Part shown: one piece after another, positions 9,317 through 58,264 of the stretch
How positions within the stretch are numbered: position 1 is the first letter of the stretch
How the letters are laid out: the number at the start of each line of letters is the position of its first letter
DNA from: an uncultured Candidatus Saccharibacteria bacterium
GTDB lineage: Bacteria; Patescibacteriota; Saccharimonadia; Saccharimonadales; Saccharimonadaceae
Direction: 5' to 3'
Assembly: GCA_964392265.1 (NCBI GenBank)
Contig: CAYMOS010000004.1
Span: 68,337 to 132,336 of the forward strand
DNA length: 64,000 bases
Program-made: the position numbers and the translations under genes
The notes under the pieces: generated by a model
The model's database searches: none
What the model was told of the DNA's origin: nothing
Seen by the model: the letters and a program-made list of their open reading frames with translations, nothing else

Positions 9317-9334
9317 TAGGTATATTGTACCAGA

Positions 9335-10538: not shown

Positions 10539-10607
10539 GGTGATCACTCCTTCAAGCTGCACCTACCGGCCAGTCCGATAGGATAGTTTCATTATAGCAC
10601 AAAAATG

Positions 10608-11372: not shown

Positions 11373-11378
11373 AAAATG

Positions 11379-12590: not shown

Positions 12591-12634
12591 TCCTTCTATT
12601 GTATCAAAAAATACGTGATTATGCTGTAGGTTTT

Positions 12635-14755: not shown

Positions 14756-14782
14756 TATATCTATAATACTACGAAATGAGTG

Positions 14783-36769: not shown

Positions 36770-37579
36770 ATGAGCAAGCCGAAGAACCAGAAGACCGTCA
36801 GCGCCAAGGCCCTGCTGGCCCAAATGGACGCCCTGGCAGAGCTCGCTCGCCAGGACTACGTTCGAGCCATCCAGGCTGTCGAGGCCAAGGTCACCGAGGC
36901 ACACGCCCTGCGGGGCACGGCTCTCGCCGAGGCCACCCAGGAGGCTCTGCCTCAGCGCGACGAACTGAGCAGGTTTATCGCCATATACGGCGATCAGGTC
37001 ATCCCCGCCCACGCGGCCGTCAAGGCCGCCGCCGCGAGGGATGACCTGCCCGCCGCGAAGGCTCAGGCCGACAAGATGCTCGACGGCCTCGAGGCCCTCG
37101 CTGCCATCTCGCCCGACCTGGCCAAGAAGTTTGAGGCCTACGAGCGCCGCCTGGCGACGCTCGAGGCCAACGACACGGCCCAGGAGGCCAAGATCAAGGC
37201 GCTTGAAGAGGCAGTCCGCCTGCTGAACGGCAGGATTGACTACATCAATAGCTACCTTGGGCAGGCCACCTCGGGCAAGGGCTTCGAGCCCTTCGACCCC
37301 TCCGGGTCGCCCGTGGCGCCGGTCGTCCCGTCGCCGGTCCCCCAGGACCCGGATCCCACCACGGATCCAGACAGCCTGGCGGCTGCCCCCGCGGCCGCCC
37401 AGACCGATGACGAGCCCGAGCCGCCGAAGTTCCCCAAGAAGGGGATTTTCCGGACGCTTCAAGAGCGCATCGGCCTTGGTCGTTCCAACGGGGACGGGGA
37501 CTCCGTCCCCTTCCGACCGAGCCAGTTCGCTGGCCCGGTCACGTCCAACAACCCCGCCACCGCCGGTGGCGCCCACTGA
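36770..37579 (+). CDS. Hypothetical Ala-rich coiled-coil protein with Pro-rich C-terminal half (269 aa)
   Basis: GGGAAGGAGC RBS, ATG at 36770 and high GC3. There is no signal peptide and no family is recognised. Confidence 0.65.
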   Translation: MSKPKNQKTVSAKALLAQMDALAELARQDYVRAIQAVEAKVTEAHALRGTALAEATQEALPQRDELSRFIAIYGDQVIPAHAAVKAAAARDDLPAAKAQADKMLDGLEALAAISPDLAKKFEAYERRLATLEANDTAQEAKIKALEEAVRLLNGRIDYINSYLGQATSGKGFEPFDPSGSPVAPVVPSPVPQDPDPTTDPDSLAAAPAAAQTDDEPEPPKFPKKGIFRTLQERIGLGRSNGDGDSVPFRPSQFAGPVTSNNPATAGGAH

Positions 37580-37587
37580 AAGGAGTG

Positions 37588-39252: not shown

Positions 39253-39265
39253 CCCTATGACGTGT

Positions 39266-39313
39266 CCCCGGGCGGCGAGATCACGGCAACCTGCCGTGGC
39301 TCGCTGCCCGGGG
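39266..39313 (+). terminator. GC-rich nested hairpin at the right end of the high-GC segment
   Basis: CCCCGGGCGGCGAG ... CTCGCTGCCCGGGG (14 bp, one G-U) encloses CACGGCA acc TGCCGTG. There is no clear U tract. Confidence 0.5.
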
Positions 39314-39606
39314 CTCGTCCCGGTGCTTCATCGCCTAAAAAGGCAACAAACTAAATAAACTGCGCTTATTCCAGGGAGCTAACACCCCTGCTTGTAGCAT
39401 TTTTATGCTCGCAGTTCGCGGTATTAGCTCCCTGCTAATCCATGTTTTGTAATAATCTGATTTAGCCTCGGTCCAGTTTTCCTTAACAATTAGGATGATC
39501 ATTCGCTCGCTTTTCCTACCGGAAGAGACAGCGACCACTTGTGTTATCAAAAAAGTGTCCAACATTACCCTATAATTCTGCTCGTGGAGTGCAGAGAGGA
39601 GTTACT

Positions 39607-42594
39607 ATGAAAAAACTATTTGCCGCGATCGCTCGCGCGCCAAAGCGATCGGCAGCCGTCTTGATGCTGGCTGCCGTCGCTATCGTCCCCGCCGTCTTGT
39701 TGGCGTGGGGACCAGGGCGACCACTATACACGGTCGAGAACGCCGCGCCACACGTGACGTTTAACTCGATCACCAACAACCAACGAGTTGGCGACGAAAC
39801 AAACTTCGTCCGGATTCGTGAACTTGCACCCAACACCACCTTTGGTGATGACGTGCAACTTCAACCAGGTAAAACCTACGAAGTCATGTTGTTTTACCAC
39901 AACAACGCCAAAAGTGAACTAAATACCAAAATCGGTCCTGATGGCAAACCAGTTGGTATTGCCCGCAACACGATGGCCCGCGTTCAAATGCCCGGCCGTC
40001 TTGACGCCGGTGCAACCGCTACCATCACTGGTTTCGTTAGCGCCGACAACGCCACCCCTAAAGAGGTGTGGGATAACGCTCGCGGTGTCAGCGCCAACGC
40101 TGTTGCCCTGCGTATTGTTCCAGGAAGTGCCAAAATCGCTAGCAGCAACGGTGCCGTTAACGGCAAACCACTGCCAAACGAACTATTTACCACTGGTACA
40201 CACATCGGCTATGACAAACTAGACGGTGTTTTGCCTGGCTGTAACGAGTTCTCTGGATACATTACCTATCAGTTTGTTGTTGACCAGCCAAACTTTACTA
40301 TCGACAAGCAAATCAGCGTTGACGGTGGTAAGACATGGGCTGAATCAGCCAAGACTACCCCTGGTAGCACTGTTCAGTATCGTTTGATCTACAAGAACAC
40401 TGGTACCGTTCAGCAAGACAACGTCATCTTGAAGGATGAACTGCCTGCTGGCGTCAGCTACGTTCCTGGCAGCAGCCAGATTGCTAACTCAGCAACCGGT
40501 GGTGCATACAAAGCAACGGTTGACGGGATTACCGGATCAGGTGGCTACAAGATTGGATCGTTTGCCCCTAATGGCAACAACTATTTCAAGTTTAGTGCCA
40601 AGATTGCCGATAACGACAAGCTGGCTAAGTGTGGCGACAACACGTTGACCAACAAGGTCATCACCTTTACTGATAACGGTAGCAAGAGTGACACTGCAGA
40701 TGTGACTGTTCCTAAGGAATGCAAGCCAACGCCAAAGTACACCTGTGATAGCCTGACGGTAAAGAAGCTTGATCGAACCAAGTTCGAATTTAGCACCAAG
40801 TACACTGTCGAGAACGCAACGTTTAAGAGCGTCACCTACGTCGTACGTAACGCCAGCGGTACCGAAGTATACCGCGGTCCAAACGCGACGTTCACAACCG
40901 AAACAGTTGGTAAATATACCGTTCAAGCCATTGTCACCGTCACGGTTGATGGCAAGGATAAGGAAGTTACCAGCGACAAATGTAAGGGTGAATTTGAAGT
41001 CACCAAAGCACCAGTTGTACCAAAGTACACCTGTGATAGCCTGACGGTAAAGAAAATCGAACGCACCAAGTTTGAATTCAACACAACGTATACCGTCCAG
41101 AATGCAACCTTCAAGCACGTTACCTACGTCGTACGTAACGCCAGCGGCGCGGAGATCTACCGTGGCACCAACAACACCTACACTCAGACCACTCCTGGTA
41201 CCTACACGGTTCAAGCAATCGTCACGGTTACCGTTGACGGTCAGGATAAAGAAGTCACGAGTGACAAATGTAAGGCAACCTTCAAGGTTGATCAGCCACC
41301 AGTTGTACCAAAGTACACGTGTGACAACCTCACCGTGAAGAAGCTTGATCGAACCAAGTTCGAATTTAGCACTGCCTACACTGTCGAAAACGCGACCTTC
41401 AAAAACGTTACCTATGTCGTCAAGAACGCATCAGGCAACGAAGTATCTCGCAGCCAAAATAACACCTTCACCACCGAAACTGTTGGCAAATACACCGTTG
41501 AGGCATTTGTTACCGTCACGGTTGATGGTGTCGACAAGACCGTGACTGGCGCAAAGTGTAAGGGTGAATTTGAAGTCACTACTGCACCAAAGCCAAGCGT
41601 TTCTATCGAGAAGAAGGTTGATGGCGTCAAGCACAAGACCGTTGCCGTTAACCAAGAGTTCACCTACCAGCTGGTTATCAAGAACACTGGTAATGTTGAC
41701 CTTAAAAACGTCAAAGTAACGGACAATGCACCAACAAACGTCCAGTTCATCAGCGCCGACAAGGGCACAATTGCCGACAACAAATGGAGCTACACGATTC
41801 CAGAGTTGAAGATTGGCGCAAGTGTTAGTGTTGCAATCAAGGCAAAAGCCACCAAGGAAAACCTGGTTGGTATCAAGAACACTGCATGTGTTGATGCCGA
41901 GGAAGTTCCTGGCACGCCAGACGACTGTGACGATGCCACAATCATTGTGCCACCTACTCCTGTACCTGGCGTCTCAATTGACAAAAAGGTAGATGGTGTC
42001 GAGCACAAGGAAGTTGCCGTCGACCAAGCGTTTACGTATCAGATTGTTGTCACCAACACTGGTACAAAGGACCTAAAGGATGTGAAGGTAACGGACAATG
42101 CACCAGCAAATGTCCAATTTACCGCCGCCGATAAGGGTACGATCACTGATAACAAGTGGAGCTATGTCATCCCAGAACTAAAGGTTAACCAAAGCATCAG
42201 CTTTGCCATTACCGCGCATGTCACCAAGGAAGTAAAGGGTGCGATTATCAACACTGCCTGTGTTGATGCATCTGAAGTTACTGGTACCCCAGATGATTGT
42301 GACGATGCTACGGTTGAAGTCCCAGAAACCCCTGTTGTCCCTGACATCACAGTCTGTGACACGACAACCAAAACCGTCGTAACGATCAAGAAGTCTGAGT
42401 ATGATCCTGCCAAGCACACTGATGACCTCACCAAGTGTGCCGAAGCACCAACACCAGAACCTACTCCTGAAACTCCTAGCGAATTACCAACTACTGGTTT
42501 TTCTGAAGGAGTCATGGCGTTCGTAGGACTTGGCTCACTGGCCCTTAGCGTCACCTATTACGCTATCAGCCGCCGAAGCCTCGGTAACCTATAA
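39607..42594 (+). CDS. Large LPXTG-anchored surface protein with tandem repeats and DUF11-type domains
   Basis: GAGAGGAG RBS before the ATG at 39607. Signal peptide MKKLFAAIARAPKRSAAVLMLAAVAIVPAVLLAWG. Three 96-aa repeats, two units of about 120 aa like VSIEKKVDG...NTGN..LKNVKVTDNAP (DUF11-like), and a C-terminal ELPTTG + hydrophobic + RRS sortase signal. Confidence 0.85.
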   Translation: MKKLFAAIARAPKRSAAVLMLAAVAIVPAVLLAWGPGRPLYTVENAAPHVTFNSITNNQRVGDETNFVRIRELAPNTTFGDDVQLQPGKTYEVMLFYHNNAKSELNTKIGPDGKPVGIARNTMARVQMPGRLDAGATATITGFVSADNATPKEVWDNARGVSANAVALRIVPGSAKIASSNGAVNGKPLPNELFTTGTHIGYDKLDGVLPGCNEFSGYITYQFVVDQPNFTIDKQISVDGGKTWAESAKTTPGSTVQYRLIYKNTGTVQQDNVILKDELPAGVSYVPGSSQIANSATGGAYKATVDGITGSGGYKIGSFAPNGNNYFKFSAKIADNDKLAKCGDNTLTNKVITFTDNGSKSDTADVTVPKECKPTPKYTCDSLTVKKLDRTKFEFSTKYTVENATFKSVTYVVRNASGTEVYRGPNATFTTETVGKYTVQAIVTVTVDGKDKEVTSDKCKGEFEVTKAPVVPKYTCDSLTVKKIERTKFEFNTTYTVQNATFKHVTYVVRNASGAEIYRGTNNTYTQTTPGTYTVQAIVTVTVDGQDKEVTSDKCKATFKVDQPPVVPKYTCDNLTVKKLDRTKFEFSTAYTVENATFKNVTYVVKNASGNEVSRSQNNTFTTETVGKYTVEAFVTVTVDGVDKTVTGAKCKGEFEVTTAPKPSVSIEKKVDGVKHKTVAVNQEFTYQLVIKNTGNVDLKNVKVTDNAPTNVQFISADKGTIADNKWSYTIPELKIGASVSVAIKAKATKENLVGIKNTACVDAEEVPGTPDDCDDATIIVPPTPVPGVSIDKKVDGVEHKEVAVDQAFTYQIVVTNTGTKDLKDVKVTDNAPANVQFTAADKGTITDNKWSYVIPELKVNQSISFAITAHVTKEVKGAIINTACVDASEVTGTPDDCDDATVEVPETPVVPDITVCDTTTKTVVTIKKSEYDPAKHTDDLTKCAEAPTPEPTPETPSELPTTGFSEGVMAFVGLGSLALSVTYYAISRRSLGNL
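40732..41595 (+). repeat. Three tandem 288-bp coding repeats inside the LPXTG gene
   Basis: Units start with CCAAAGTACAC(C/G)TGTGA at 40732, 41020 and 41308. The protein units read PKYTCD(S/N)LTVKK(L/I)(D/E)RTKFEF... Confidence 0.85.
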
Positions 42595-47158: not shown

Positions 47159-47188
47159 TTGACAAATAGGACCTGAAAGTGGTATAAT
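47159..47188 (+). promoter_or_regulatory. Near-consensus promoter for tRNA-Lys (TTGACA, 18 nt, TGgTATAAT)
   Basis: TTGACA at 47159-47164 and extended -10 GTGGTATAAT ending at 47188, 55 nt upstream of the tRNA. Confidence 0.65.
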
Positions 47189-47243
47189 GAAAGAATAGGG
47201 GTTTACATCAGACCTGTTAGTTTGATATACTCCCTTAATGTCC

Positions 47244-47320
47244 GGGCCATTAGCTCAGCTGGTTAGAGCACCTGCCTCTTAAGCAGGGTGTCCTGAGTTC
47301 AAGTCTCAGATGGCCCTCCA
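47244..47320 (+). tRNA. tRNA-Lys (anticodon CUU), CCA encoded
   Basis: GGGCCAT TA GCTC AGCTGGTTA GAGC A CCTGC CTCTTAA GCAGG GTGTC CTGAG TTCAAGT CTCAG ATGGCCC T CCA. Confidence 0.9.
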
Positions 47321-48857
47321 AATACGGATTTTTTACGGAAAGGTCGCCCGAAAGGGCGGCTTTTTCGGTGGCGGCGCGCAGCGCCAGCCACGGGTTTTTC
47401 AGGGGGGAGATTTGAGATTGGTCGCCACTCGTGGCGACTTTTTTGTTTGTTAAAAACAGGTTCAACCCAAAGATTTCTCGCAAAAGTGTCTTTTTCGCGC
47501 CAAAGTCGTCAGAATGAGCGGCAGAACAGATAGCGACAGCCTTTTCTAGCCATATTCTCATGGGTTCAACCCACCGACTTTGTCCAACCGCAACGTCGCT
47601 CATTTGTTCTTCTAAAGACTTCTTTTCGCTCATTATCTCGGCTTTCTTGGCAAGATATACATCGCGCTCTATCACTTCGTCTAGGTAACTATCAAGAAGT
47701 CTTTGCAATTTCCCCGACAGGTGCGCCAGTTGTCCGTTTAGCTCCGCCAACGCCGCGCCGCTTTCGGCTTGCTCTTTCTGTTCCGCCTCGTCTATACGCT
47801 CGCGCAACCAGTCGCCCCAGCCGTCAGGCAGGGCAAATTGCGCCAGCAATACAGACAATTCATTGTCTAGCGGTTCGCTCCGCACAGGTTTTTCAACACA
47901 CGCCACCGTTTTGCTCTTGCGAGTGCAACGATAATACACATAATTATGCACGTTGCCGTTTTTCTGCCGCTTGGTCTTGTTCTCGGCGGTAATCATCATG
48001 CCGCACGAGCATTTCAACAGTCCGCAATACGGCGCAGGCTCTCGGCTATGGTCTTGCTCCCGAAAACACCGTTGCGCCACCACCGCTTGCACGCGGTCAA
48101 ATAGTTTTTTAGAAATAAGCGGTGTATGCTTACCCTCGTACAGCTCGCCCTTATACACGAAGTGTCCGTAGTAAAACGGATTGGTCAAAATCTGTTTTAC
48201 TTTATCGGGTTTATACATCTTGCCACCTTTTGTCTTTACGCCATTGGCGTACAAATACTTGGCAATATCTATAAATCTACTTTCATTTTTTGCATACAAC
48301 TCAAACGCACCTATCGCAAGCGGCGCACGCCGCTTGTCTACTTTTATTGTCTTTGTGCGCATGTCGTTATAGTAGCCAAGCTTTGCCAGTCCTGGGTATT
48401 CGCCGCGCCGCAGTTTCTCGCGCAGTCCGCGCTTAGTGTTCACCGACAAATTATCTACATACTGTTTAGATGAATTAAACTCGTTAGCAAGCATATATTT
48501 GCCTTGCGGTGTATTTTCAAACCAGAAATGAGGAAATTTCAGGTCAAGTAGTACCTGCTCGTCCAGCATATAAATGATTTTGCCGCTATCTATGCTATTG
48601 CGAGATAGTCGGTCAGGCATCCACGCCAAAATGCCGTTTGCCTCGCCGTTTTCTATGCGCTCCAGCATTATGTTGAACTTTTTTCGCCCTGGTTTCTTGG
48701 CGGTTTCTTTTTCTATAATCACGTCAACAATGTAAATGCCCATGCGCGCGGCGAACTCTTTGAGCTCGGCGATTTGTGCCGCAATAGATAATACTTGTTT
48801 GTCCTCTACGTCCGTGCTTTTACGAACGTACAAGAAATAGATGAGCCGAGGCAACAT
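47250..48857 (-). CDS. Large serine recombinase
   Basis: YVRKSTDVEDKQ catalytic-Ser block, MPDRLSRN, KLGYYND, NPFYYGHFVYKGELYEGKHTPLI and CSCG...YYRCTRK...C ribbon. AAGGTGG RBS before the ATG at 48857. The C-terminal about 55 codons lie in repeat A and antisense tRNA-Lys. Confidence 0.85.
   Translation of the reverse strand: MLPRLIYFLYVRKSTDVEDKQVLSIAAQIAELKEFAARMGIYIVDVIIEKETAKKPGRKKFNIMLERIENGEANGILAWMPDRLSRNSIDSGKIIYMLDEQVLLDLKFPHFWFENTPQGKYMLANEFNSSKQYVDNLSVNTKRGLREKLRRGEYPGLAKLGYYNDMRTKTIKVDKRRAPLAIGAFELYAKNESRFIDIAKYLYANGVKTKGGKMYKPDKVKQILTNPFYYGHFVYKGELYEGKHTPLISKKLFDRVQAVVAQRCFREQDHSREPAPYCGLLKCSCGMMITAENKTKRQKNGNVHNYVYYRCTRKSKTVACVEKPVRSEPLDNELSVLLAQFALPDGWGDWLRERIDEAEQKEQAESGAALAELNGQLAHLSGKLQRLLDSYLDEVIERDVYLAKKAEIMSEKKSLEEQMSDVAVGQSRWVEPMRIWLEKAVAICSAAHSDDFGAKKTLLREIFGLNLFLTNKKVATSGDQSQISPLKNPWLALRAATEKAALSGDLSVKNPYLEGHLRLELRTPCLRGRCSNQLS
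47316..47420. repeat. Inverted repeat A, left arm (105 nt)
   Basis: Exact reverse complement of 49071-49175, checked base by base. Contains the hairpin GTCGCCC gaaa GGGCGGC + TTTTT, which would terminate tRNA-Lys. Confidence 0.9.
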
Positions 48858-49070
48858 ACACACCACCTTTACTTGCACTCAAAAAGCCGCTTCGCTGGAA
48901 TACAAATCAGGCAAAACCCGAATTGTGCGAAACGGCTATTTGAGTGGTCAAATAGTAGAAGTTTTGCCGATTGATTTGTATTCCACTTACCATTATATCA
49001 CGGAGCGGACGACGCGGAGCGTGTCGGCTATGCCGACGTAACAAACAAAAAAACCATGCCGTAGGCATGG

Positions 49071-49175
49071 CAATCTCAAATCTCCCCCCTGAAAAACCCG
49101 TGGCTGGCGCTGCGCGCCGCCACCGAAAAAGCCGCCCTTTCGGGCGACCTTTCCGTAAAAAATCCGTATTTGGAG
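49071..49175. repeat. Inverted repeat A, right arm (105 nt)
   Basis: Exact reverse complement of 47316-47420. Its last 7 nt (TTTGGAG) are shared with repeat B. Confidence 0.9.
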
Positions 49176-49440
49176 CGAATTTTTATCTTCGCTAGAACCT
49201 ATTTTACCGCACCAGAGCCAAAAACACCACCCCTGTGGCAACCAACCGACAATCTGTGGAATACGCCGCGTGCCGAGCGTAAGCGAGGTAAGCAGGCGAA
49301 AAAGCAATAGCGATCTCCAGCCGCGCCGCCTAGCACGGCAAGCCGTGCTGCGCCCCACCAGAAAAACCCTTTGATTTTTTGAGATTTTCCCCCCCGCCGA
49401 ATTTCTTTTTTAGTTGTAAAGGGTGTTTCTGGTGGTTCGC
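49169..49440. repeat. Inverted repeat B, left arm (272 nt)
   Basis: Exact reverse complement of 52846-53117, checked in blocks. The ORF track confirms it with identical 63-aa translations MGRSTACRARRRGW... on opposite strands (48993..49358 and 52928..53191). Confidence 0.9.
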
Positions 49441-49675
49441 TGTCGCTTTAGCGACTTGGCGGCTCATATTTTATCGCACTCGTGGTAAAAATTACTGATT
49501 TACGGTATAATGAAAGCGTCTAGGTAAAACAACAAGAGAGCAGTCTTTTTGACTGTTGCCAAGCTTAAAAAGCGGCAACCATTCGAAAAGACACGGAGCT
49601 TGGCTCTTGTTGTTTGGCCTAGACAACCTAGAATGGTTGTCGTTTTTAATTTTAGAGAAAGAGAGGAACAGCGAC

Positions 49676-50212
49676 ATGAAATCAGCAAGCAAAACGGAAC
49701 AGACAGGCAGTCAGGGGCTTGCGATTGCGTCGCTCGTTCTCGGTATTTTAGCAATCGTTACATCTCTTGTATGGTATATCGGCATTACGCTTGGTATTCT
49801 TGCTATTGTCTTTGGTGTAATTTCAATCAAAAACGGACGAGGAAAAGCAATCGCTGGCATTGTTATGGGTAGTATTGGTATCGTGTTAAGCCTGCTTATT
49901 GTTTGGCTCGTACAGGCAGCACTCCCTAGTATGCAGCAAAGCCAACGCGATATGGCACGTAGAAACGACGTTAGCGTTATCACTACGGACGTTACGTCAT
50001 TTATGACAGAAAATCGCGGACAATTGCCAAGTGCAAGCGACCTTACGACTTCTAGTCTTACGCAAATTACCACCGTAACCGAAAGCGGTACGCCGACCAC
50101 CGACACCGCCGTATACAAGGCAGGTGTAAATTGCGACGGCGCAGCCTCAACGCGCGCATATGCAATCACGGTACTTCTTGAAAACGGTTCAGAATACTGC
50201 CTGGGGTCGTAA
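49676..50212 (+). CDS. DUF4190-like membrane protein with pilin-like C-terminal domain (178 aa)
   Basis: GAGAGAGG RBS region before the ATG at 49676. GLAIASLVLGILAIV...GILAIVFGVISI...AIAGIVMGSIGIV is a DUF4190 pattern. QSQRDMARRNDVSVITTDVTSFMTENRGQLP resembles the conserved helix of type IV pilins. Confidence 0.6.
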   Translation: MKSASKTEQTGSQGLAIASLVLGILAIVTSLVWYIGITLGILAIVFGVISIKNGRGKAIAGIVMGSIGIVLSLLIVWLVQAALPSMQQSQRDMARRNDVSVITTDVTSFMTENRGQLPSASDLTTSSLTQITTVTESGTPTTDTAVYKAGVNCDGAASTRAYAITVLLENGSEYCLGS

Positions 50213-50228
50213 AAAGTAGGCATTAGAC

Positions 50229-50762
50229 ATGGACACTCTAAAATCTATCGGCGGCACTCTGCTAGGAATAGCGATTTTTGTCGGTATAATCATTGCGACT
50301 ATACTTTTCTTTACGCTCGGCGCAAAAGTAGCATTTGAGATTGCACCATTTATCAACTGGCTTGCTGGCATACTTTTTGTTATCAACCTTGCTTTATTGC
50401 TTGTTGCGATCATACCGAAAGCGCGCGGCGTTGTTGGTTTAATCATCTACATCTCGTCCTACGTCTACGGCTTGTCTGCATGGATTTATGGTCTAGCGGT
50501 TACGTTGGCATTGTGGGGATGGCTGGCCGTGATTATCGGTCTATTCTTGGGCGGTATCGGCGTTGTGCCAATCGGTATGCTCGCGTCAATGTTTAATGGC
50601 GAGTGGGGTATTTTCTGGACACTCCTATTTACTGCCGTACTGACGTATGGTTCACGAATAGTCGGCTATGCACTTGCAAATAGTAGCGCAGGCGCAGCTA
50701 ATGACGAAGTGATAGACATTGAGCCGACAGATAATAAACGAACTTGGGGAGAGATAGAGTAA
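50229..50762 (+). CDS. Hypothetical polytopic membrane protein (177 aa) ending in TWGEIE
   Basis: Five to six hydrophobic helices. Its stop overlaps the next start (TAATG). Confidence 0.6.
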   Translation: MDTLKSIGGTLLGIAIFVGIIIATILFFTLGAKVAFEIAPFINWLAGILFVINLALLLVAIIPKARGVVGLIIYISSYVYGLSAWIYGLAVTLALWGWLAVIIGLFLGGIGVVPIGMLASMFNGEWGIFWTLLFTAVLTYGSRIVGYALANSSAGAANDEVIDIEPTDNKRTWGEIE

Positions 50763-51130
50763 TGACAAAGCAGAAACAGAGCCTAAAACTACCGATATTT
50801 TTGATTGTTGCGCCCATAGCTGGATTGATACTCTCGGTAATTTTGTACGCGATTGTTAATTTTATCGTTGCAAGTTCAATGCCAGAAACAACGCCTAGCA
50901 TTTCTGAGGGCGCAGGCATAGCGCAAGGAGTAGACGCGCAGAGCGATTTGTATGGTGAAACGCCCGTATTCCAGACGATTGCAAATGTCGTACTATTCCT
51001 ACTTGGTAGCATTAGTTTATTGGCATTTGTACCATGTCTTGTAGTCGGTATTATTATGATAAATAGACGACGCAGCGCGCAAACATCATCAGAAGATAAT
51101 ACATCAAGAGATTGGGGAGATTTAGAATAA
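50762..51130 (+). CDS. Hypothetical 2-TM membrane protein (122 aa) ending in DWGDLE
   Basis: Start at ATG 50762 (MTKQKQSLKLPIFLIV). Its stop overlaps the next start (TAATG). Confidence 0.55.
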   Translation: MTKQKQSLKLPIFLIVAPIAGLILSVILYAIVNFIVASSMPETTPSISEGAGIAQGVDAQSDLYGETPVFQTIANVVLFLLGSISLLAFVPCLVVGIIMINRRRSAQTSSEDNTSRDWGDLE

Positions 51131-51936
51131 TGCAACTACCCCACTCGGAAACACGCGAAAGCTACACGCGACATGTCAAAGTCATTGAGGCAAATCTAAA
51201 AGACGCAACATCAGGCGATCTTGACACCGCGCTACTCGCACAAGTCCAAAAGCGGCTTGATGCACTCGCCGATAAATATCAATACAGCGAGGAAATCGGG
51301 AAAGCAAGATACAAACTTTACGAGCTACAGGCGCTTGTTCACTATTTCAGCGGTTACGATGATGATGCGCTAGACTTTATCAACCAAGCGATTGAAATGC
51401 GCGGCGATAGCTACGCGCGAGCCGAAAAACTAAAAACACAATTACTAACAAAGGCGCACGCTACCAATCCGAAAATAATGACCAAGCAACAGCGCCGCAA
51501 AAAACTTATAGGACTTGAGGGCTGGCTGGCGTTTTTTGTTGTTAGTGTTTCAATTTCAACACTGGCTTATGCTATCGCGGCTATTTTTAGTATCATCAAT
51601 CTAAACAACCTACCGAATACCGCCGACGCGTACGCGTCGGGTCTATTAAGTCCATACTACAGTTTCCTTGCGTTCGCGGCTGTCGTAATGGTCGGCGCTG
51701 GAATATGGCTTATCGTCCTACTGGCAAAATGGAAGAGGCTTGCTCGTTGGGTTGGTATCGCGTTTCTGTCATCTGCCGTCGTGATAGCTTTCATTGATTA
51801 TATGTGGTACGCAGACTTACTGACTAAACTAACAGGGCTTGGGCCGAATAGCGCAAGTGGTGGTACATTTGTTGCAATTCTCTGGATTATTTACCTTTGT
51901 GTTTCTCGGAGAGTAAAAAGGACGCTAACAAAATGA
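51130..51936 (+). CDS. Helical (TPR-like) N-terminal domain fused to a DUF2569-like 4-TM domain (268 aa)
   Basis: YKLYELQALVHYFSGYDDDALDFINQAIEMRGDSY looks like a TPR-type helix pair. GLEGWLAFFVV plus three more helices resemble DUF2569. Confidence 0.55.
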   Translation: MQLPHSETRESYTRHVKVIEANLKDATSGDLDTALLAQVQKRLDALADKYQYSEEIGKARYKLYELQALVHYFSGYDDDALDFINQAIEMRGDSYARAEKLKTQLLTKAHATNPKIMTKQQRRKKLIGLEGWLAFFVVSVSISTLAYAIAAIFSIINLNNLPNTADAYASGLLSPYYSFLAFAAVVMVGAGIWLIVLLAKWKRLARWVGIAFLSSAVVIAFIDYMWYADLLTKLTGLGPNSASGGTFVAILWIIYLCVSRRVKRTLTK

Positions 51937-52306
51937 CACAGCACAAAGAAAACTATTCATGGGTGTATATCGGACTTGCCGTACTTATTGGCGGCGCGAT
52001 TTTGTACTTTCTCTTTTTTCGTCTGGCTCTGGCTATGTAAAAGTAAAATACCGTGATGACAAAGTGGACGTATCGGCAAGCAACTTTACACCGCTAGACA
52101 AAACCGACGCAACCGTTAAGGGCGCATGGTACGACAGCGGCAACGAGTATATGATTATAAAACTCGGTAGCACCTATTATCATTACTGCGGTATGCCAAG
52201 CAGCGCTTGGCGCGACTTTTCGTCGGCAAGTTCACCATATCGGGCATATCAAGACGACATCAAAGGCAATTTTGACTGTCGCGTAAATCCTGTGCCGAGA
52301 TACTAG
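51933..52306 (+). pseudogene. KTSC-domain protein with N-terminal TM anchor, interrupted by a frameshift at a T6 run
   Basis: Frame 1 (ATG at 51933, ATGA overlap with the upstream stop) reads MTQHKENYSWVYIGLAVLIGGAILYFLFF and stops at 52040. The -1 frame continues SSGSGYVKVKY...GAWYDSGNEYMIIKLGSTYYHYCGMPSSAWRDF (KTSC-like). One extra T in the run at 52014-52019 would join the two. Confidence 0.55.
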
Positions 52307-52308
52307 CC

Positions 52309-52623
52309 ATGAAAAATAATATTTCAATCAACAAATACTTACTTGTCGGGCTTATCGCCGCCGCGTTAGCAGGCGGCGTTTACGCTGGCTTTTACTACAC
52401 TAATCAACATTATCAAAACAAAGAGGCTCGCGCACTACGCGAGGAAGCCGAAATATACGAGAAAAACCTGATTTGCGAGGCGCGCGTTCAGCGCGGCAAA
52501 ACAGGAGAGATTAAAAGCGACTATTTCATTTTTGAGCGAAGCGCAAAAAAGGAAGATTGCGAAAAGTTTATAGATTATAAAAACCTACCAGACGACACAG
52601 AGGGCGCTTGGTTAGGCTTTTAG
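52309..52623 (+). CDS. Hypothetical N-terminally anchored small protein (104 aa)
   Basis: TM helix YLLVGLIAAALAGGVYAGFYY followed by a charged soluble part. Confidence 0.5.
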   Translation: MKNNISINKYLLVGLIAAALAGGVYAGFYYTNQHYQNKEARALREEAEIYEKNLICEARVQRGKTGEIKSDYFIFERSAKKEDCEKFIDYKNLPDDTEGAWLGF

Positions 52624-52845
52624 TGGGCAATGTGCGACTGCCAACGGCATAAAGGCGGCGTTAGCCGTCTTTATATTTCTAGCGAAGCTACGCTATATCT
52701 GGTGTGAGTACACCAGATATAGCGTGTATTTCATACTTTCGGTTTATTTGCTGCTTGCTCGTTAGTCGTTACACTTGCAGGACTAGGGCGCGTAGCGCGT
52801 CGGCTTTGCCGACTAAAGCCACGCCGCCTCCACCGCTTGCGGTGG

Positions 52846-53117
52846 GCGAACCACCAGAAACACCCTTTACAACTAAAAAAGAAATTCGGCGGGGGGGAAA
52901 ATCTCAAAAAATCAAAGGGTTTTTCTGGTGGGGCGCAGCACGGCTTGCCGTGCTAGGCGGCGCGGCTGGAGATCGCTATTGCTTTTTCGCCTGCTTACCT
53001 CGCTTACGCTCGGCACGCGGCGTATTCCACAGATTGTCGGTTGGTTGCCACAGGGGTGGTGTTTTTGGCTCTGGTGCGGTAAAATAGGTTCTAGCGAAGA
53101 TAAAAATTCGCTCCAAA
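52846..53117. repeat. Inverted repeat B, right arm (272 nt), ending in CTCCAAA
   Basis: Exact reverse complement of 49169-49440. Confidence 0.9.
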
Positions 53118-53152
53118 GTAATAATCCCTCCTCTGTGAGGGATTATTACTTT
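53118..53152 (+). terminator. Displaced native terminator of tRNA-Lys
   Basis: GTAATAATCCCTC ctctgt GAGGGATTATTAC TTT, a perfect 13-bp stem, directly after the CTCCAAA repeat. Confidence 0.7.
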
Positions 53153-54801
53153 ATATGTGGTATACTAATATCTAGATTTGAGCACCCGTAGCTCAGTGGA
53201 TTAGAGCATTTGTCTTCGGAACAAAGGGTCGTACGTTCGAATCGTACCGGGTGTACCAAATGTAAATCAGAGGACTCTTCGGGGTCCTTTTTGATTGCTG
53301 CCAATCTGTAAAGGATACTCAAAGTGCCCGTTCCAAAATCATTCTGCTTGCAGTCCCATTCCAGTCCCTCAGGGTAGATGATCTTCTGAAATAGCATCCG
53401 CGACTCGTAGTCTGCGTCCCTCCAGAGCTTTGCTGGGGTCATTATGAAGTTACAGACGTACTCTATCGTGCTTTCACTGATGCGCTGCACCTTTTCTAGT
53501 CTCTCTATATCTTCATCGTAGCTTATACGCTCCTTATTCTTGCCTGTTTCGTATATGTCGTAGGCTTCCTGCGATATCTTTTCGTCTACGAGCTTCTGGA
53601 GGGCTTTCTGGATGTCCTTATCTATTGCAGCTAGCTTTGCCCTCGTAGCCTTTAGATCGCTATTGACGTCTGCCAATTTCTTCTGCGCCGTATTGCGGAT
53701 AACTGCCTTGAAAAGCTTGATACCTGCCTCTGTCGGCGTGATCGTCTGTAAAAGATCATGAAACTTCTCGTGCATAGTCTCTATGTTGACGGAGGACATA
53801 GCCTTACATTCGCTACAGTGGTATCGGGGAGAGCTTTTGCCAGAGCCATTCGTCGGTGCAGAGCCTCGGATCTTGTTTTTGCAGCCAGAGCATACCAAGA
53901 ACGCCTTAAGTGGGTATAGGTAGTCGTTCTCTTCCTTGCGCTCGTAGACTGGCTTATTGCCAGCAAGTATTCTCTGATTCTTCTCGTAGGTCTCCATTGT
54001 GATGAGCCCATCCCATTGCGCCTTTATCATCTTGTCATCTGTCAGTCGCTTGCCGCAGACATAGCCAGCGTATAAAGGGTTGCGTAGTATGCGGTTCATC
54101 TGATTGAATGAAAATCTTTCACTATCACTGTCTGGTTGTAACTTGATATCCCCTGCGTAATCCACGAGACCCGTAACAGTTAGATCGCCAACACTAAACC
54201 TATTAAGAACATTCGTAAGCTTCTCGGCTCTATCGTTTGCTGTGTCGGGAGTGAGCGATAGGCGTGCTTTTGTGCCTTTCTCTCCTGAGGGTACTTTAAG
54301 GGGCAGAAATCCATAGGGAGCCTTAGATTGCCACCAACCCTGCCGTGCTACTGTTTTCATGTTATCTTTGACGGTCTCTGCCTTGACGTTGTTGTCGAGC
54401 TGATGGAACGCGATGGATATATTTTGGATAAACCTACCGTACGGCGTCTCGTCTATATTCTCCTGCGTTGACCTGAGGAGTACACCGTTACCTAGGAGTG
54501 CGGGAGCAATCGTCGTAGAGAACGACTGAAGGTCTCTTGATATACGACTTGTGTTGTAGACGATCACGTAGTCTATCTCGCCTCGATGTGTGCGAATATC
54601 AGTAAGCATCTCCTGTAGCTTCTCTCGATTGGCTGTAGAGGCAGATACGCCCTCATCTGAGTACCAGCCAACAACTTCAACGTTATTGGCTGTTGCATAG
54701 CGAAGAATAGCCTGCTGTTGATTAGTCAGCGATGCGCCATCTACCTGCTCCTCGGTAGATACTCTGATGTAGCCGTAGGCATACTTTTTGAGGTCTTTCA
54801 T
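53146..54801 (-). CDS. Large serine recombinase
   Basis: YGYIRVSTEEQ catalytic-Ser block, YNTSRISRD, PYGFLPL, NPLYAGYV and CSGC...YHCSEC ribbon. Start placed at ATG 54801 (MKDLKKY, with GGAG 8 nt upstream). The ORF tail runs antisense through the whole tRNA-Arg. Confidence 0.85.
   Translation of the reverse strand: MKDLKKYAYGYIRVSTEEQVDGASLTNQQQAILRYATANNVEVVGWYSDEGVSASTANREKLQEMLTDIRTHRGEIDYVIVYNTSRISRDLQSFSTTIAPALLGNGVLLRSTQENIDETPYGRFIQNISIAFHQLDNNVKAETVKDNMKTVARQGWWQSKAPYGFLPLKVPSGEKGTKARLSLTPDTANDRAEKLTNVLNRFSVGDLTVTGLVDYAGDIKLQPDSDSERFSFNQMNRILRNPLYAGYVCGKRLTDDKMIKAQWDGLITMETYEKNQRILAGNKPVYERKEENDYLYPLKAFLVCSGCKNKIRGSAPTNGSGKSSPRYHCSECKAMSSVNIETMHEKFHDLLQTITPTEAGIKLFKAVIRNTAQKKLADVNSDLKATRAKLAAIDKDIQKALQKLVDEKISQEAYDIYETGKNKERISYDEDIERLEKVQRISESTIEYVCNFIMTPAKLWRDADYESRMLFQKIIYPEGLEWDCKQNDFGTGTLSILYRLAAIKKDPEESSDLHLVHPVRFERTTLCSEDKCSNPLSYGCSNLDISIPHIK
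53182..53258 (+). tRNA. tRNA-Arg (anticodon UCG), CCA encoded
   Basis: GCACCCG TA GCTC AGTGGATTA GAGC A TTTGT CTTCGGA ACAAA GGGTC GTACG TTCGAAT CGTAC CGGGTGT A CCA (G1-U72 wobble). Preceded by a TGTGGTATACT extended -10-like element. Confidence 0.88.
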
Positions 54802-54823
54802 AGTTGACTCCATTATAGTATAC

Positions 54824-55068: not shown

Positions 55069-55803
55069 CTAATCGGAGTGTAGCATATAGCTCTCGTCTG
55101 AGTTTAGGGCGAGCCGTATGCGTCTTTCTCTATTGATCTTAGGCAATAGTCCATTCAACTTACTCACCACTTTATGCACGTCTTGGTCTAACTTATGTGT
55201 CCCATCTATCTCGCCCCATAGATTGCGCTTGATACTCCCTAGGGTTAGTGATCGAGTGCGGCTCTCTAGAAACTGTACGAGAAGTTTTTTCGTCTGCGTA
55301 GACAAGCCAACTAGCTCCGTGCCGTTTAATAGCACTTCGCCAGTCGGCTTTACTTCGTATTCTCCGTAGGTAGCGCTTTGCGTAGATCTTTCGTGCCTAT
55401 CTATCGCTGCACCTATGCGTGTCTTCTCGTCTCTTAGGATGTCTCTTACTTCTTTTGCTGCCTGTCTTCTTGCGTGGAATCCTGCAATAATATCTGTACC
55501 GTCAATGGGTGCTAGCGCCTCTGAGAGAGCGATGTGAATGTCTCGCATAGCACAGGCGGCTATAGTCTCATCTACGACTGCGCTCCATAATCGGAGGCGT
55601 TCTAGTATGGTTTCATTTGAAGGGCTTGTATCTATGGCATGTTTAAGCCCTGAAGACTCCTCTAGTAGCTGTCCTAGTGTTTGTGCCGTACGATCAAGTG
55701 CTTCGAGGTCTTCTACGTAGGTAGGGATGTTGGGCATAGTATGTTCACTATAGCACGGCACAGGATAATCTTGAGAGGTGCTGTTATAGGTTGAATAGCG
55801 CAA
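55069..55803 (-). CDS. Hypothetical protein with C-terminal OmpR-type winged-helix-like domain
   Basis: C-terminal LLNGTELVGLSTQTKKLLVQFLES...LWGEIDG...VHKVVSKLNGLL resembles a Trans_reg_C domain. The N-terminal about 140 aa are unassigned. The start is uncertain (55803 or ATG 55737), and neither has a clear RBS. Confidence 0.5.
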   Translation of the reverse strand: MRYSTYNSTSQDYPVPCYSEHTMPNIPTYVEDLEALDRTAQTLGQLLEESSGLKHAIDTSPSNETILERLRLWSAVVDETIAACAMRDIHIALSEALAPIDGTDIIAGFHARRQAAKEVRDILRDEKTRIGAAIDRHERSTQSATYGEYEVKPTGEVLLNGTELVGLSTQTKKLLVQFLESRTRSLTLGSIKRNLWGEIDGTHKLDQDVHKVVSKLNGLLPKINRERRIRLALNSDESYMLHSD

Positions 55804-56036: not shown

Positions 56037-57647
56037 TCACTTATTTATTGCCTCAGCTTCAAGTGCCTCTGCATCTCTCATATAATCTTTTAATGCCTCC
56101 CTGAGGTGGGGCGCATATTGCCTGGATGTCTCCTCTATCTTACGGAGTGCCTCCTTCCGCTGCTCAATCTCTGTGTCGTAGGAAAAGCTTAGCGACTCCA
56201 GAAAGATGACTTTACCTCTTTCGTTCAGATGACTTTCGTCTGTCGATAGCAAATCTACTACGGATATATCTTGATCGCTCGTGTAGTTCAGGAATACCTT
56301 GATTACAACGGAGTCGTTTTCCGGATTGTCCGCCTTGAGACACGGCTCTTTTTTGTCCGAATCTTTTGACAGAGCCTCTATTTTGATGCGATTCTCTTCG
56401 TTAGTCTCATTGAAGTTTACTCCAGCGCTGCTCATCCCCCTGCCGTAGAGGGCATCTTTTCTGTTATCTATCGATGCCTTGCAAGTTACTGCTACTGCAC
56501 TTCTCAGGGCTTGCCTTTCTTTTTCGTCTGCGTTTTTGTTGATGGATGTAACAACCCAAAGTGTGGCTATCGATATAATGATGACCAATATGATCACTCC
56601 TACTGTGGACTTACTGCCATATACAGGCTTTTCTGGCCTACGCAAAGAGTTAGCTCCATGAGATAGCACCGCCGTGTCTTGATTGGATATCGTTAGATTG
56701 TGCATACCTTCTTGCCATATGCTCACGATTTGTTTCGCCACAGCTGTCTTACCGCGAGCCATAACTTCATCTGCTATCTGAAATACTGCCTCTTCGGCAT
56801 TATCATATTGTTGCTGAAAGTCATCGAGAGTCATCTCCTCCTCTTTATATAGCCCGACATTTAGCGTGAGCATATGATTCTTGGCGACTATATCTAGATC
56901 TAGAGCGTTATCTACTAAAAGCTTTCTATATCTACTTAGATAATACGTCTGCTTAGTTGTGAGGTGCCCGTCTTGGCTAAGGCTCTCCGTAAAGTTAAGA
57001 ATTGCACGAGATAGCAATCCTGTCGTGAACGCAGCTATTACTCGTGAGTTTTGGTTAGGAGTCAGGTGAAACATAAGGTGTGATGTGTATTTGAGTGATT
57101 TCTTGACGATACGTATTTGCTTGCCGACTAACTCCGCTGGCTCGTCATCGTACAAGACAGCGGACTGCCGTCTGAGCTGGCTGCCTGTCTGCTTTATAGA
57201 TTTTGAGGGCATCGCACACAAGACGAGTGTGATAATACTAAGAGGGGGAACAATAAGCAGAAGTACCCACAAAGCAGAATGCTTAGCATCTTCTAGTCTG
57301 CGCATTGTCATAGCTAAGATTGGCAATAGAGATACCACTAGATATATAGTCACAAGAAAAGTTGTCAAATCAATAAAGTACAAGAATGAAGCAATTACAA
57401 TATGAATAATGTACGCACCCCAGAATCCAGAGCGTGAAGTAGTGCCCTTTGCACTAAAGCCTCTTGCCCACATATCAAGGTATGCTCCTCGCTCCAGCTC
57501 CGTGTCGTGCTGATTGTCTTGACGCTCTGAGTGTTTATTGACATCTTCTATATCTTCAAGCAGCAGGTCTATATCGTCCATAGAATTATTTGCTGGCGAT
57601 GAGTCCCTGAAAGTGTTAAGCATTAAATTGTCATCGTGTTTTCCCAT
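56037..57647 (-). CDS. DUF805-domain membrane protein with long C-terminal extension (about 536 aa)
   Basis: FSAKGTTSRSGFWGAYIIH ... MTMRRLEDAKHSALWVLLLIVPPLS matches the DUF805 pattern (GR.sR..FW ... RRLHD.G.S.WW). A further TM helix (VGVIILVIIISIATLWVV) separates two unassigned domains. Start placed at ATG 57647 after GGGAGAAGAGAG. Confidence 0.6.
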   Translation of the reverse strand: MGKHDDNLMLNTFRDSSPANNSMDDIDLLLEDIEDVNKHSERQDNQHDTELERGAYLDMWARGFSAKGTTSRSGFWGAYIIHIVIASFLYFIDLTTFLVTIYLVVSLLPILAMTMRRLEDAKHSALWVLLLIVPPLSIITLVLCAMPSKSIKQTGSQLRRQSAVLYDDEPAELVGKQIRIVKKSLKYTSHLMFHLTPNQNSRVIAAFTTGLLSRAILNFTESLSQDGHLTTKQTYYLSRYRKLLVDNALDLDIVAKNHMLTLNVGLYKEEEMTLDDFQQQYDNAEEAVFQIADEVMARGKTAVAKQIVSIWQEGMHNLTISNQDTAVLSHGANSLRRPEKPVYGSKSTVGVIILVIIISIATLWVVTSINKNADEKERQALRSAVAVTCKASIDNRKDALYGRGMSSAGVNFNETNEENRIKIEALSKDSDKKEPCLKADNPENDSVVIKVFLNYTSDQDISVVDLLSTDESHLNERGKVIFLESLSFSYDTEIEQRKEALRKIEETSRQYAPHLREALKDYMRDAEALEAEAINK

Positions 57648-58264
57648 CTCTCTTCTCCCTCTCGTCATGGCGATAATGGTAATTGAATACGATACGATGT
57701 CAACAAAAAAGGACACCGCGAGGTGTCTTATGCCATATCACAGCTAGATTTTACTCAGGACTGCTTACGCGGTGTCCTTTAATGAAGTAAAATCCGCCAC
57801 TAGGTGGTGATTCGCTTTGATATGGTATAAGACTTTTTCATCATACCTCCTACTAAGTAGGCGTGGCAACTGGTGCTGTAGATTCACCGCTTGAGACAGG
57901 CACTATCATTATGTTCTATGTGGTACATATCTTACTCTTACCTCCTGTTATGAAGTGGCAAGGTGGTCAGGATGCTGCTGCGTTAGTGTAGTAGGTATGC
58001 AGCTACATGGTGAGAGGTACTATCTATCTATTCATGGAAATCAACGCACTATCATGCGTGTACTGCGTAGGTATCATGGGGGGACTCCCCACCTATCTAG
58101 CTAATCAATCTACCAGTGTTATTGCGCCCGTTTTATGCCCCTGAGAGGCTCTGAGAGGGAGTTGTATGGCGTCCAAATGCGTGAGATGGGTTCATACTCA
58201 TCTTTTGCGCTAGTCTTACATCCTAACAGGGGTGAAGAATCGCTAGGAGAGCTGCTGCTGTAGC

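Follow-up and report, generated by a model that had tools for sequence, protein, structure and literature searches.

How can an element that has integrated at the end of a tRNA gene be built from two abutting pairs of perfect inverted repeats, and what might such a layout do? We studied this question for a tRNA-Lys(ctt) island in the window, i.e., the whole stretch of DNA analysed here (64,000 nucleotides from an uncultured Candidatus Saccharibacteria bacterium), in which a gene for a large serine recombinase (LSR; the window's protein is named LSR1) stands next to a block of cargo genes. Positions 47316-53117 of the window are a 5.8-kb integrative element between the CCA end of tRNA-Lys(ctt) and the terminator of this tRNA. 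As its best explanation we propose, with moderate confidence, an LSR family that targets tRNA CCA ends, keeps its own attachment site (attP) within the open reading frame (ORF) of the recombinase, stores an inverted spare of this site and couples integration to a switch of the recombinase's C-terminal tail.

The repeat pairs given by the sequence-only reading were reproduced exactly by a repeat search of the window, including all coordinates (Table 1). That is, arms a and a' are 100% reverse complements over 105 nt, arms b and b' over 272 nt, and the two central arms (a', b) overlap in TTTGGAG. The next-longest inverted repeats in the 64-kb window have ~34 nt at 79% identity, and perfect inverted repeats of 105 and 272 nt cannot have arisen by chance within a sequence of this length. 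Since arm a, core and arm b (~370 nt) are present twice in inverted orientation, both the recombinase module (M1) and the cargo module (M2) are bracketed by perfect inverted repeats. We name the sites by their halves: S1 is T::a (with T the tRNA end), S2 is a'::b, i.e., the reverse complement of b'::a, and S3 is b'::R (with R the displaced hairpin of the tRNA). The previously claimed junctions, tRNA::a on the left and b'::terminator on the right, are borne out, and a 16-bp hairpin follows S3. The unit a'-core-b in the middle had been taken for an intact attP-like site in inverted orientation, and it is indeed the site that excision would reconstitute.

A typical LSR element has a single attP, and its attL and attR sites are inert without a directionality factor. 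Here, in contrast, a second, intact and inverted attP-like unit is found within the integrated element, both in the window and in at least 41 relatives. An intact attP (S2) persists inside the integrated element because the 3' segment of the recombinase gene is duplicated in inverted orientation. The earlier description of the a arms as flanking the recombinase gene calls for a correction: the gene does lie between the arms, but its ORF extends across arm a and past the core, to end within the tRNA in antisense.

Relatives were collected with an LSR1 scan of one genome per species as well as of JGI and ENA metagenomes. This resulted in 160 loci, each of which was compared with itself. With few exceptions, their labels read Candidatus Saccharibacteria or name other Patescibacteria. 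In 114 loci the LSR gene is framed by a pair of inverted repeats, with arms of ~105 nt in Saccharibacteria and of 137-185 nt in other clades, and a second, abutting pair of 69-435 nt encloses a variable cargo of 0.8-7 kb in at least 41 loci. M1 measures 1.45-1.7 kb in nearly all relatives. Within an element the arms are mostly 98-100% identical, though the recombinases are only 45-91% identical to LSR1, and this level is kept also in cases where recombinase identity is no more than 45-75%. Many contigs stop exactly at an arm, which is to be expected of a de Bruijn assembler at an inverted repeat.

Close copies of the window element are found elsewhere. LSR1-like proteins with at most 2 residue differences are fused to tRNA-Lys(ttt) in two loci (L163, L179), of which L163 shows 99.4% nucleotide identity with the window element over M1 and the arms, while two further LSR1-like proteins (P0245, P0248) are fused to a third tRNA and end in ..LEPRSGVEPETSS... 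The window element is thus mobile, with near-identical copies at three different tRNAs. LSR1 itself is present in the protein collection under other cluster members (P0247), and the protein search returns more than 4000 related recombinases at E<=1e-30. When LSR bodies are clustered at 98.5% identity or more, up to 4 different C-termini occur within one cluster. A scan of the IMG/VR viral contigs with LSR1 finds no relatives, and thus nothing that points to a phage or to a free circle.

Some loci add to the picture of the family. In one case, two family members (L033, L127) lie within ~6 kb at different tRNAs of one contig; given this pairing, multiple copies per genome are common. Four LSR relatives with 48-60% identity (L025, L111, L132, L078) are without detectable inverted repeats. 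Two of them still adjoin a tRNA (L132, L078), and the other two have no tRNA in ~21 kb of flanking sequence. These repeat-less relatives are either decayed copies or a simpler version with a single attP.

By its domain content LSR1 is an ordinary LSR. Pfam reports Resolvase (PF00239, 1.4e-14), Recombinase (PF07508, 2.7e-18) and Zn_ribbon_recom (PF13408, 1.4e-4) in the expected order, a YVRKSTD motif lies close to the N-terminus, and the C-terminal domain of A118 integrase (4KIS) aligns with residues 207-423. LSR1 is a member of no named family: it scores far below the cut-offs of all named LSR families in NCBIfam (CcrA/B/C, XisF), with CcrB (96.7 bits; cut-off 900) and XisF (79.8 bits; cut-off 375) as the best matches. 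The canonical body ends at about residue 479 and is followed by a linker of 35 codons encoded by arm a before the core is reached. What comes after the core depends on the sequence that is joined to it. In the window, the C-terminus consists of 21 junk codons from antisense tRNA-Lys, i.e., ..NPYLE followed by GHLRLELRTPCLRGRCSNQLS and a stop. When arm a, core and arm b are read through instead, a conserved C-terminal tail (..ARTYF..) results, which for the window is ..LE followed by RIFIFARTYFTAPEPKTPPLWQPTDNLWNTPRAERKRGKQAKKQ and for relatives usually ..LV followed by ALYSKARTYFSTKC, each ending in a stop. The recombinase would end in this canonical tail when the element is excised, or once M1 has flipped. 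Respective protein pairs exist, as near-identical LSR bodies end in the canonical tail (P0002) or are tRNA-fused (P0005).

The recombinase ORF has no stop ahead of the core in any of the testable loci (75/75), which places the site within the integrase ORF as in SSV-like systems. The tail motif R(T/S)xF is present in 56/75 loci with the stop at a conserved distance. Among relatives the tail codons vary synonymously (Arg as CGA, AGA or CGC; Phe as TTT or TTC), so that the constraint on the tail is at least partly at the protein level. The S2 copy brings no start codon along, and a stop sits 2 codons upstream of a' in the window. S2 thus duplicates the 3' end of the gene silently and does not form a gene by itself. 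We also considered S2 as an independent small gene and candidate directionality factor, and rejected this since relatives show no conserved start before a' and given the window's upstream stop. No other candidate for a recombination directionality factor was identified in the element. The tail and the 35 arm-a codons fall outside the region that can be aligned to solved LSR structures (residues 207-423 versus 4KIS). The peptide encoded by arm a tracks the covariation of its hairpins (e.g., LALRAAT vs. VWLRQSL); judged from this, the stretch appears to be an open linker rather than a conserved domain.

With regard to the target, the tRNA-Lys gene is intact in the window, encoded CCA included, as known for tRNA-targeting islands. 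Given the extent of the tRNA gene, the core CTCCAAA comprises the last acceptor base, the discriminator and the CCA, plus AA. A tRNA adjoins the outer arm a in 85 loci with an overlap of ~5 nt. The targets are of at least 12 kinds (Lys, Thr, Met, Arg, Glu, Gly, Leu, Ala, Gln, Val, Tyr, His) and encode the CCA in 63 of 68 genes. The 5-mer of S2, i.e., acceptor-end base, discriminator and CCA, equals that of the occupied tRNA in 61/63 elements, and the identity shared by attP and the target site (attB) shrinks in relatives to this 5-mer (CACCA or CTCCA). Elements with a CTCCA core, including the window's, occupy tRNAs with discriminator U (Lys, Thr, some Gly), those with a CACCA core the other tRNAs. 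The same element (99.6% over 5.5 kb) is found at tRNA-Leu(taa) in L015, where element and tRNA have the longer stretch CGCACCAAAT in common, and at tRNA-Glu(ctc) in L102, where only CACCA is shared. The crossover is therefore located inside the 5-mer. Insertion thus takes place between short sites with few shared bases, as expected for LSR elements (CACCA for L102, CTCCAAA in the window).

The downstream half of the target (R) differs at every locus and unrelated hairpins occupy its place in relatives, which leaves the tRNA half as the only part of attB that can be specific. A further similarity concerns the T loop: its sequence GGTTCGA keeps a distance of 20 nt to the core in real tRNAs, and b' contains GGTTCGA or GGTTCTA at a distance of 24 nt. 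According to the A118/LI integrase model, the motif bound by the zinc-ribbon domain (ZD) is shifted by 5 bp between attB and attP (PMC3783163). The outward shift in b' has the same direction and nearly the same size as this ZD-motif shift of LSRs (PMC3783163). ARAGORN finds no tRNA in arm b' when the arm is checked as a mimic of a tRNA 3' half. The similarity is real, but the C-to-A changes of the motif are synonymous in the recombinase frame, and thus its constraint is at least partly at the protein level.

Next to the target we note a perfect match to a TTGACA-18-TATAAT promoter of tRNA-Lys at 47159-47188. An extended -10-like box, GGTATAATGAAAG, is found upstream of both tRNA-Lys (47183-47195) and the cargo operon, and a related box at 50282-50301. 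A FolD gene adjoins tRNA-Lys and has homologues in Saccharibacteria. In a ~90%-related genome, every contig with the FolD gene breaks off within the tRNA or at its very last base. One contig of that genome, with FolD and tRNA-Lys(ctt) (L173; Logan SRR9674365), has its left end exactly at ...GGCCCTCCAAA, the last core base, which is expected when the assembly graph branches between occupied and empty sites or between different inserts.

The orientation of the modules is strongly biased. The LSR gene points toward the tRNA in 81 loci and away from it in 4, i.e., ~95% are tRNA-fused. Among the 120 closest protein clusters of a 5.8-billion-protein collection, 11-12 have the canonical and 102 a tRNA-derived tail. 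A circle would offer two attP copies of the same sequence, either of which integration should be able to use, and the bias must therefore arise after integration. Two of the flipped loci end in canonical tails, namely ..SLFYQARTFFQNR and stop in L061 and ..SLLYQARTYFQSKH and stop in L149. The arms of L149 are only 87% identical, such that its orientation is not a choice of the assembler.

Inversion of M2 was found by comparing related elements. L003 and L086 are collinear through the LSR gene and S2 (88.8%), and a 670-nt cargo segment is inverted and located at the opposite end of M2; as the b arms are short in these loci, this inversion is unambiguous. L164 and L165, both from human oral metagenomes, have a 100% identical stretch of LSR, a, core and b in common, but their cargo (HinfI, DUF4411, M78 peptidase; 99.4% identical) points one way in the first and the other way in the second, with the breakpoint at the inner edge of arm b. 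Finally, L179 is 99.3-99.8% identical to the window element and, compared with the latter, has M2 inverted relative to M1. Since an inversion between perfect arms creates no new k-mers, L061, L164/L165 and L179 are suggestive rather than proof, while L003/L086 and L149 are free of this problem. A large terminal hairpin can serve as a marker of M2 polarity, but it is present in few loci only and is weak evidence. In sum, both M1 and M2 are found flipped among relatives, and their inversion within the source sample is a supposition.

The internal site S2 also seems to be used. In a complete Candidatus Nomurabacteria chromosome (CP060229.1; L056, 8400-11600), the LSR cassette lies between a::tRNA-Tyr and a'::tRNA-Leu(taa) and there is no arm b. 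The two flanking tRNAs are convergent, and an IS3-like transposase is inserted upstream of the LSR gene. This arrangement looks like the expected product of S2 recombining with a second, inverted tRNA gene, by which the chromosome in between would be inverted and according to which the internal attP would be active. In both L170 and L161, a third arm-b copy with 89-92% identity comes after the arm a of the LSR itself. Both are best read as a second element inserted at an occupied tRNA, so that T::a can presumably still serve as a target. As arm b is found on both sides of M1 in these two loci, we also considered them as circles, and rejected this in view of an 8-11% divergence of the arms and of a chromosomal S3 junction in L170. 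These loci look like tandem or hybrid junctions instead. Another locus, L053, has a 4352-nt perfect inverted repeat (5458-15729), i.e., the whole cargo module and its arms on both sides of the LSR cassette. This palindrome is either genuine or was produced when SPAdes folded back through the inverted repeats.

Based on these observations, we propose the following course of events. The excised form would be a ~5.8-kb circle in which two inverted attP copies divide M1 from M2. Integration via the attP copy at the 3' end of the LSR gene would swap the conserved tail for antisense-tRNA junk and thereby weaken or lock the recombinase. Integration via the other copy, or a flip of M1, would leave the gene complete. 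The complete enzyme would be the active form. It would go on with flips, excision or reactions of S2 with further tRNAs, and these would come to a halt once M1 is tRNA-fused, a kinetic trap that would explain the 81:4 bias. A rare inversion of M1 would rejoin the gene with the tail cassette stored in S2 and thus re-arm the element. It could proceed by homologous recombination between the a arms or by S1 x S2, which is formally a reaction of attP with a site that still has the only specific half of attB and would regenerate the same two sites. Within the circle, attP x attP could flip the modules. Intramolecular attP x attP recombination is known for A118/LI and Ccr recombinases (PMC3783163). 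Flips of M2 would be a by-product, and the spare attP could react with other tRNA genes. That the recombinase itself might catalyse the inversions is unproven.

Taken one step further, the element could be a bacterial serine-recombinase counterpart of the archaeal 'suicidal' integrases, with a device for resurrection: integration would switch the enzyme off or alter its directionality, and the inverted spare would re-activate it. We regard this extension as possible but doubtful. If true, directionality would be set by DNA topology and not by a separate directionality factor. In this reading, any tRNA gene with an encoded CCA could become a target of one and the same enzyme, as the 3' end common to all tRNAs is the only specific half of attB.

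Several points weigh against the proposed switch. The tail lies outside the canonical LSR fold and may be dispensable, such that a tRNA-fused enzyme could be fully active. The conservation next to the core in arm b could reflect a constraint on the DNA site (the T-loop-like GGTTCGA) rather than on codons. Where arms exceed the k-mer or read length of the assembler, the orientation of modules could be an assembler choice, which concerns L061, L164/L165, L179 and the short contigs with canonical tails. The 81:4 bias could instead be due to selection against transcripts that start at the tRNA promoter and continue into the recombinase gene. Moreover, neither a circular form (among the loci and viral contigs scanned) nor an empty tRNA-Lys::terminator site (in any fetched locus) was found.

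The arms carry signals of another kind. Read in the direction of the tRNA, arm a comprises the core, a GC-rich hairpin 1 (47342-47360) with a T-run, hairpin 2 (47369-47390) and a conserved G-rich block, GGGGGGAGAT. In an alignment of 33 distinct arms, 88.6% of the cells of these hairpins pair, compared to 36-44% when the partners are slid, and the stems show 9 pairs with compensatory changes; none of 500 shuffles reaches the observed values. According to this covariation, arm a is a predicted two-hairpin terminator that replaces the tRNA's own and would insulate the recombinase gene on both sides, since a' mirrors arm a and would thereby block transcription from entering M1 at the far side as well. 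The distal part of arm b is kept at the DNA level across elements. At a permissive threshold, Rfam reports only the two tRNAs in the window, and neither distal arm b nor the end of M2 matches a described RNA family. In the pair L015/L102, three substitutions in arm b are each mirrored in the partner b arm, so that the arms are homogenised faster than the elements diverge. This concerted evolution fits the ongoing recombination that had been suspected from the zero mismatches.

These signals lead to a rival explanation without any switch, in which arms a and b would be bidirectional insulators, flips and homogenisation occasional RecA-mediated events, and the tail without regulatory role. We consider it unlikely, yet to be taken seriously. 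The two conserved hairpins of arm a, one of them a terminator, and the extra inward terminators at both edges of M1 speak for it, and so does the arm-a peptide, which follows the hairpins without being conserved itself. The location of the tail outside the canonical LSR domains is in line with it too, and the mirrored substitutions can be read as a product of gene conversion. Insulation, however, needs no perfect identity over 272-377 nt including the core. It also leaves unexplained that the ORF stays open for at least 50 codons in 75/75 loci with a conserved stop after R-T-x-F and synonymous changes, and it offers no reason for the 81:4 bias given identical attP copies. A quite improbable alternative is a phase-variation switch of the cargo by inversion of M2, i.e., a domestication of the element as an inverton of small membrane or surface proteins. 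The window's cargo does encode membrane or pilin-like proteins, and near-identical copies hold M2 in both orientations. But the -10 box and the terminator of M2 both lie within the part that inverts, and hence a flip should leave cargo expression unchanged; besides, the cargo differs wholly between relatives (e.g., HinfI, DUF4411 and M78 peptidase in L164) and the element is mobile between tRNAs.

The sequence-only reading had also put forward a flip-flop similar to that of the 2-micron plasmid. As an amplification device, the free circle would replicate, and recombination between the repeats would raise its copy number in the process. The geometry would suit this, as two long perfect inverted repeats with recombinase targets split a small circle. 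The amplification role finds no support, though: no module holds a replication initiator or an origin-like feature, there is no circular contig and no match in the viral and plasmid-like collection, and every long contig is chromosomally integrated beside tRNAs, which makes this reading very improbable. There is an equally slim chance that two independent elements abut, namely an LSR cassette with 105-nt ends and a passenger with 272-nt ends. Each module has its own inverted ends and L056 has M1 without M2, but the arms always abut with an overlap in the core, the recombinase ORF crosses from arm a through the core into arm b, and every a-only insertion keeps b-proximal tail sequence (e.g., L106, L110, L150), while L056 is better explained by S2 x a second tRNA. 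Finally, perfect abutting inverted repeats are the classic signature of a fold-back during assembly or multiple displacement amplification, and some relatives, such as L053 with its 4352-nt repeat, look like one. For the window the probability of such an artefact is next to negligible. The same architecture with lineage-specific arms is found beside tRNAs in more than 100 contigs from different studies, assemblers and habitats, such that a fold-back in a single assembly does not account for it. In addition, the junctions are coherent with an intact tRNA, a replacement terminator and the displaced native terminator. The artefact that had been named as a check on the layout is thus refuted for the architecture, and only the orientation of individual modules stays assembler-dependent.

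Compared with known systems, the element belongs to the same class as the LSR systems of phages and integrative conjugative elements (phiC31, Bxb1, A118/LI), with the order Resolvase, Recombinase and Zn ribbon with coiled-coil insertion. It also shares with them the conservative insertion with few shared bases and a motif that is farther from the core in the element's site than in the target (PMC3783163). Unlike these systems, its target is generic to many tRNA genes instead of one locus and only one attB half can be specific. Moreover, its attP lies within the integrase ORF and is accompanied by a second, inverted attP. An attachment site inside the integrase gene has been described for archaeal 'suicidal' tyrosine integrases of SSV type (SSV1, pTN3, pT26-2; PMC8371274). 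Int-pTN3 inverts DNA between tRNA genes as well as between inverted attP sites (PMC5495485), and the inversion suggested by L056 is comparable to the former. In contrast to SSV-type systems, we find a serine rather than a tyrosine recombinase and bacterial rather than archaeal hosts, only a C-terminal tail of 15-45 aa is exchanged and the gene is not split in two, and the lost 3' end is backed up within the element by an inverted copy, which would be able to restore the gene by inversion.

In the FLP/FRT system of the 2-micron plasmid and the flip-flop of the chloroplast inverted repeat, long identical inverted repeats with a recombinase target give rise to orientation isomers. The similarity to 2-micron lies in a small circle (inferred here) that is split into two unique segments by perfect inverted repeats holding the recombinase target. 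The differences are that FLP is a tyrosine recombinase and that 2-micron is a replicon using the flip for amplification, whereas our element is without replication function, lives at tRNAs and has one repeat split by integration. The invertases Hin, Gin, Cin and Pin have ~190 aa with a C-terminal helix-turn-helix, depend on an enhancer and Fis, use 26-bp sites and are encoded outside the invertible segment. Like Hin and Gin, LSR1 is a serine recombinase with inverted sites bracketing an invertible segment, but it is an LSR with 535 aa whose gene lies within one of the two invertible modules, its arms have 105-272 nt and the element is mobile.

In the integration-dependent immunity of the mycobacteriophages BPs and Brujita, attP lies inside a gene and integration alters the C-terminus of the protein and hence its activity or stability (PMC4557955). 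There, it is the repressor gene that is altered and the integrase is a tyrosine recombinase; here, the serine recombinase gene itself is concerned and the tail swap may have a functional effect. The tycheposons of Prochlorococcus are small cargo elements at several tRNA genes, of which 910 of 937 use tyrosine recombinases and a minority LSRs (bioRxiv 10.1101/2020.12.28.424599). They resemble our family as small, cargo-carrying elements that insert at several tRNA genes by a site-specific integrase; an inverted attP duplication and an ORF-spanning site are not described there. Generic targeting of tRNA CCA ends, an attP that spans the ORF and an inverted duplicate attP that creates two invertible modules are the unusual features of this LSR element. 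The family is apparently undescribed. In agreement with the earlier statement that no such layout was known, our full-text literature search found no description, with most papers of subscription journals outside its coverage.

If confirmed, the family would define a common mobile element of Saccharibacteria and other Patescibacteria, i.e., of tiny genomes with poorly known routes of gene exchange. It would furthermore extend attachment sites within integrase genes beyond the archaeal tyrosine recombinases that mark the scope given in PMC8371274. For LSR engineering, a natural target that is the generic CCA end of tRNAs and a possible control of directionality without a separate factor are of interest. 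The retained internal attP offers a mechanism for inversions between tRNA genes as in L056. On the practical side, the perfect inverted repeats explain the frequent contig breaks beside tRNAs in metagenome-assembled genomes of Patescibacteria, and the module orientation in short-read assemblies is not to be trusted.

Table 1. Features of the tRNA-Lys island and its borders (window coordinates).
Feature	Position	Strand	Description
tRNA-Lys(ctt), integration target	47244-47320	+	ARAGORN; Rfam tRNA 68.3 bits
LSR1, large serine recombinase ORF	47250-48857	-	535 aa from ATG after AAGGTGG ribosome-binding site
Core S1, CTCCAAA	47316-47322	+	attL junction tRNA::a
Arm a	47316-47420	+	105 nt; repeat search
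Edge hairpins of M1	47420-47439; 49071-49053	+; -	inward-pointing, terminator-like
Module M1, recombinase cassette	47421-49070		1650 nt
Arm a'	49071-49175	+	perfect inverted copy of arm a
Core S2, TTTGGAG	49169-49175	+	within intact inverted attP-like unit a'-core-b, 49071-49440
Arm b	49169-49440	+	272 nt; core and tail-coding part, then conserved, hairpin-bearing distal part
Silent tail cassette	49176-49310	+	encodes RIFIFARTYFTAPEPKTPPLWQPTDNLWNTPRAERKRGKQAKKQ and stop in recombinase frame, no own start codon
Hairpin of distal arm b (example)	49350-49372 / 49418-49440
Module M2, cargo	49441-52845	+	3405 nt
M2 -10-like box	49504-49516		GGTATAATGAAAG
M2 ORF1	49676-50212	+	DUF4190 N-terminus, pilin-like C-terminal region
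M2 ORF2	50229-50762	+	no domain match
M2 ORF3	50744-51130	+	no domain match
M2 ORF4	51112-51936	+	DUF2569
M2 ORF5	51959-52306	+	KTSC
M2 ORF6	52309-52623	+	no domain match
M2 terminator hairpin	52689-52726		17 bp
Arm b'	52846-53117	+	perfect inverted copy of arm b
Core S3, CTCCAAA	53111-53117	+	attR junction b'::R; end of arm b'
R, displaced terminator-like hairpin of tRNA-Lys	53115-53130 / 53137-53152	+	16-bp perfect stem
tRNA-Arg(tcg)	53182-53258		3' of hairpin R; ARAGORN

The cargo receives no function from PADLOC and NCBIfam, and the sole PADLOC match is a weak one to a 2TM effector (E = 0.0016). Pfam and PADLOC report no phage genes in the element, which thus does not classify as a carrier of phage or defence cargo, and Pfam, NCBIfam and PADLOC find no replication or partition gene in any module. 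Among the first 160 loci, no cargo module contains a homologue of the window's cargo proteins. Their set (DUF4190, DUF2569, KTSC and small membrane proteins) recurs in L170 and L179. Since L170 carries the same cargo beside an LSR that is only 61% identical to LSR1, cargo is exchanged between recombinase lineages.

Directly to the right of tRNA-Arg(tcg), the window holds a second LSR gene (53146-54813, minus strand). Its product is 21% identical to LSR1, it is without inverted repeats, and its ORF runs antisense through the whole tRNA-Arg. It probably belongs to a separate island that extends to ~57.7 kb (ORFs 55069-55803 and 56037-57716). As this second LSR adjoins tRNA-Arg, two adjacent tRNAs are each occupied by a different LSR element. 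Further upstream, the stretch 37000-42300 has a GC content of 66-68% compared to 45-50% for the genome. It contains a 12-nt periodic repeat of CCGACGCCGAC type (38771-38896), three tandem units of 288 nt (40732-41589) and two units of ~372 nt (41597-42268), and looks like the gene of a large, repetitive, Pro/Thr-rich surface protein.

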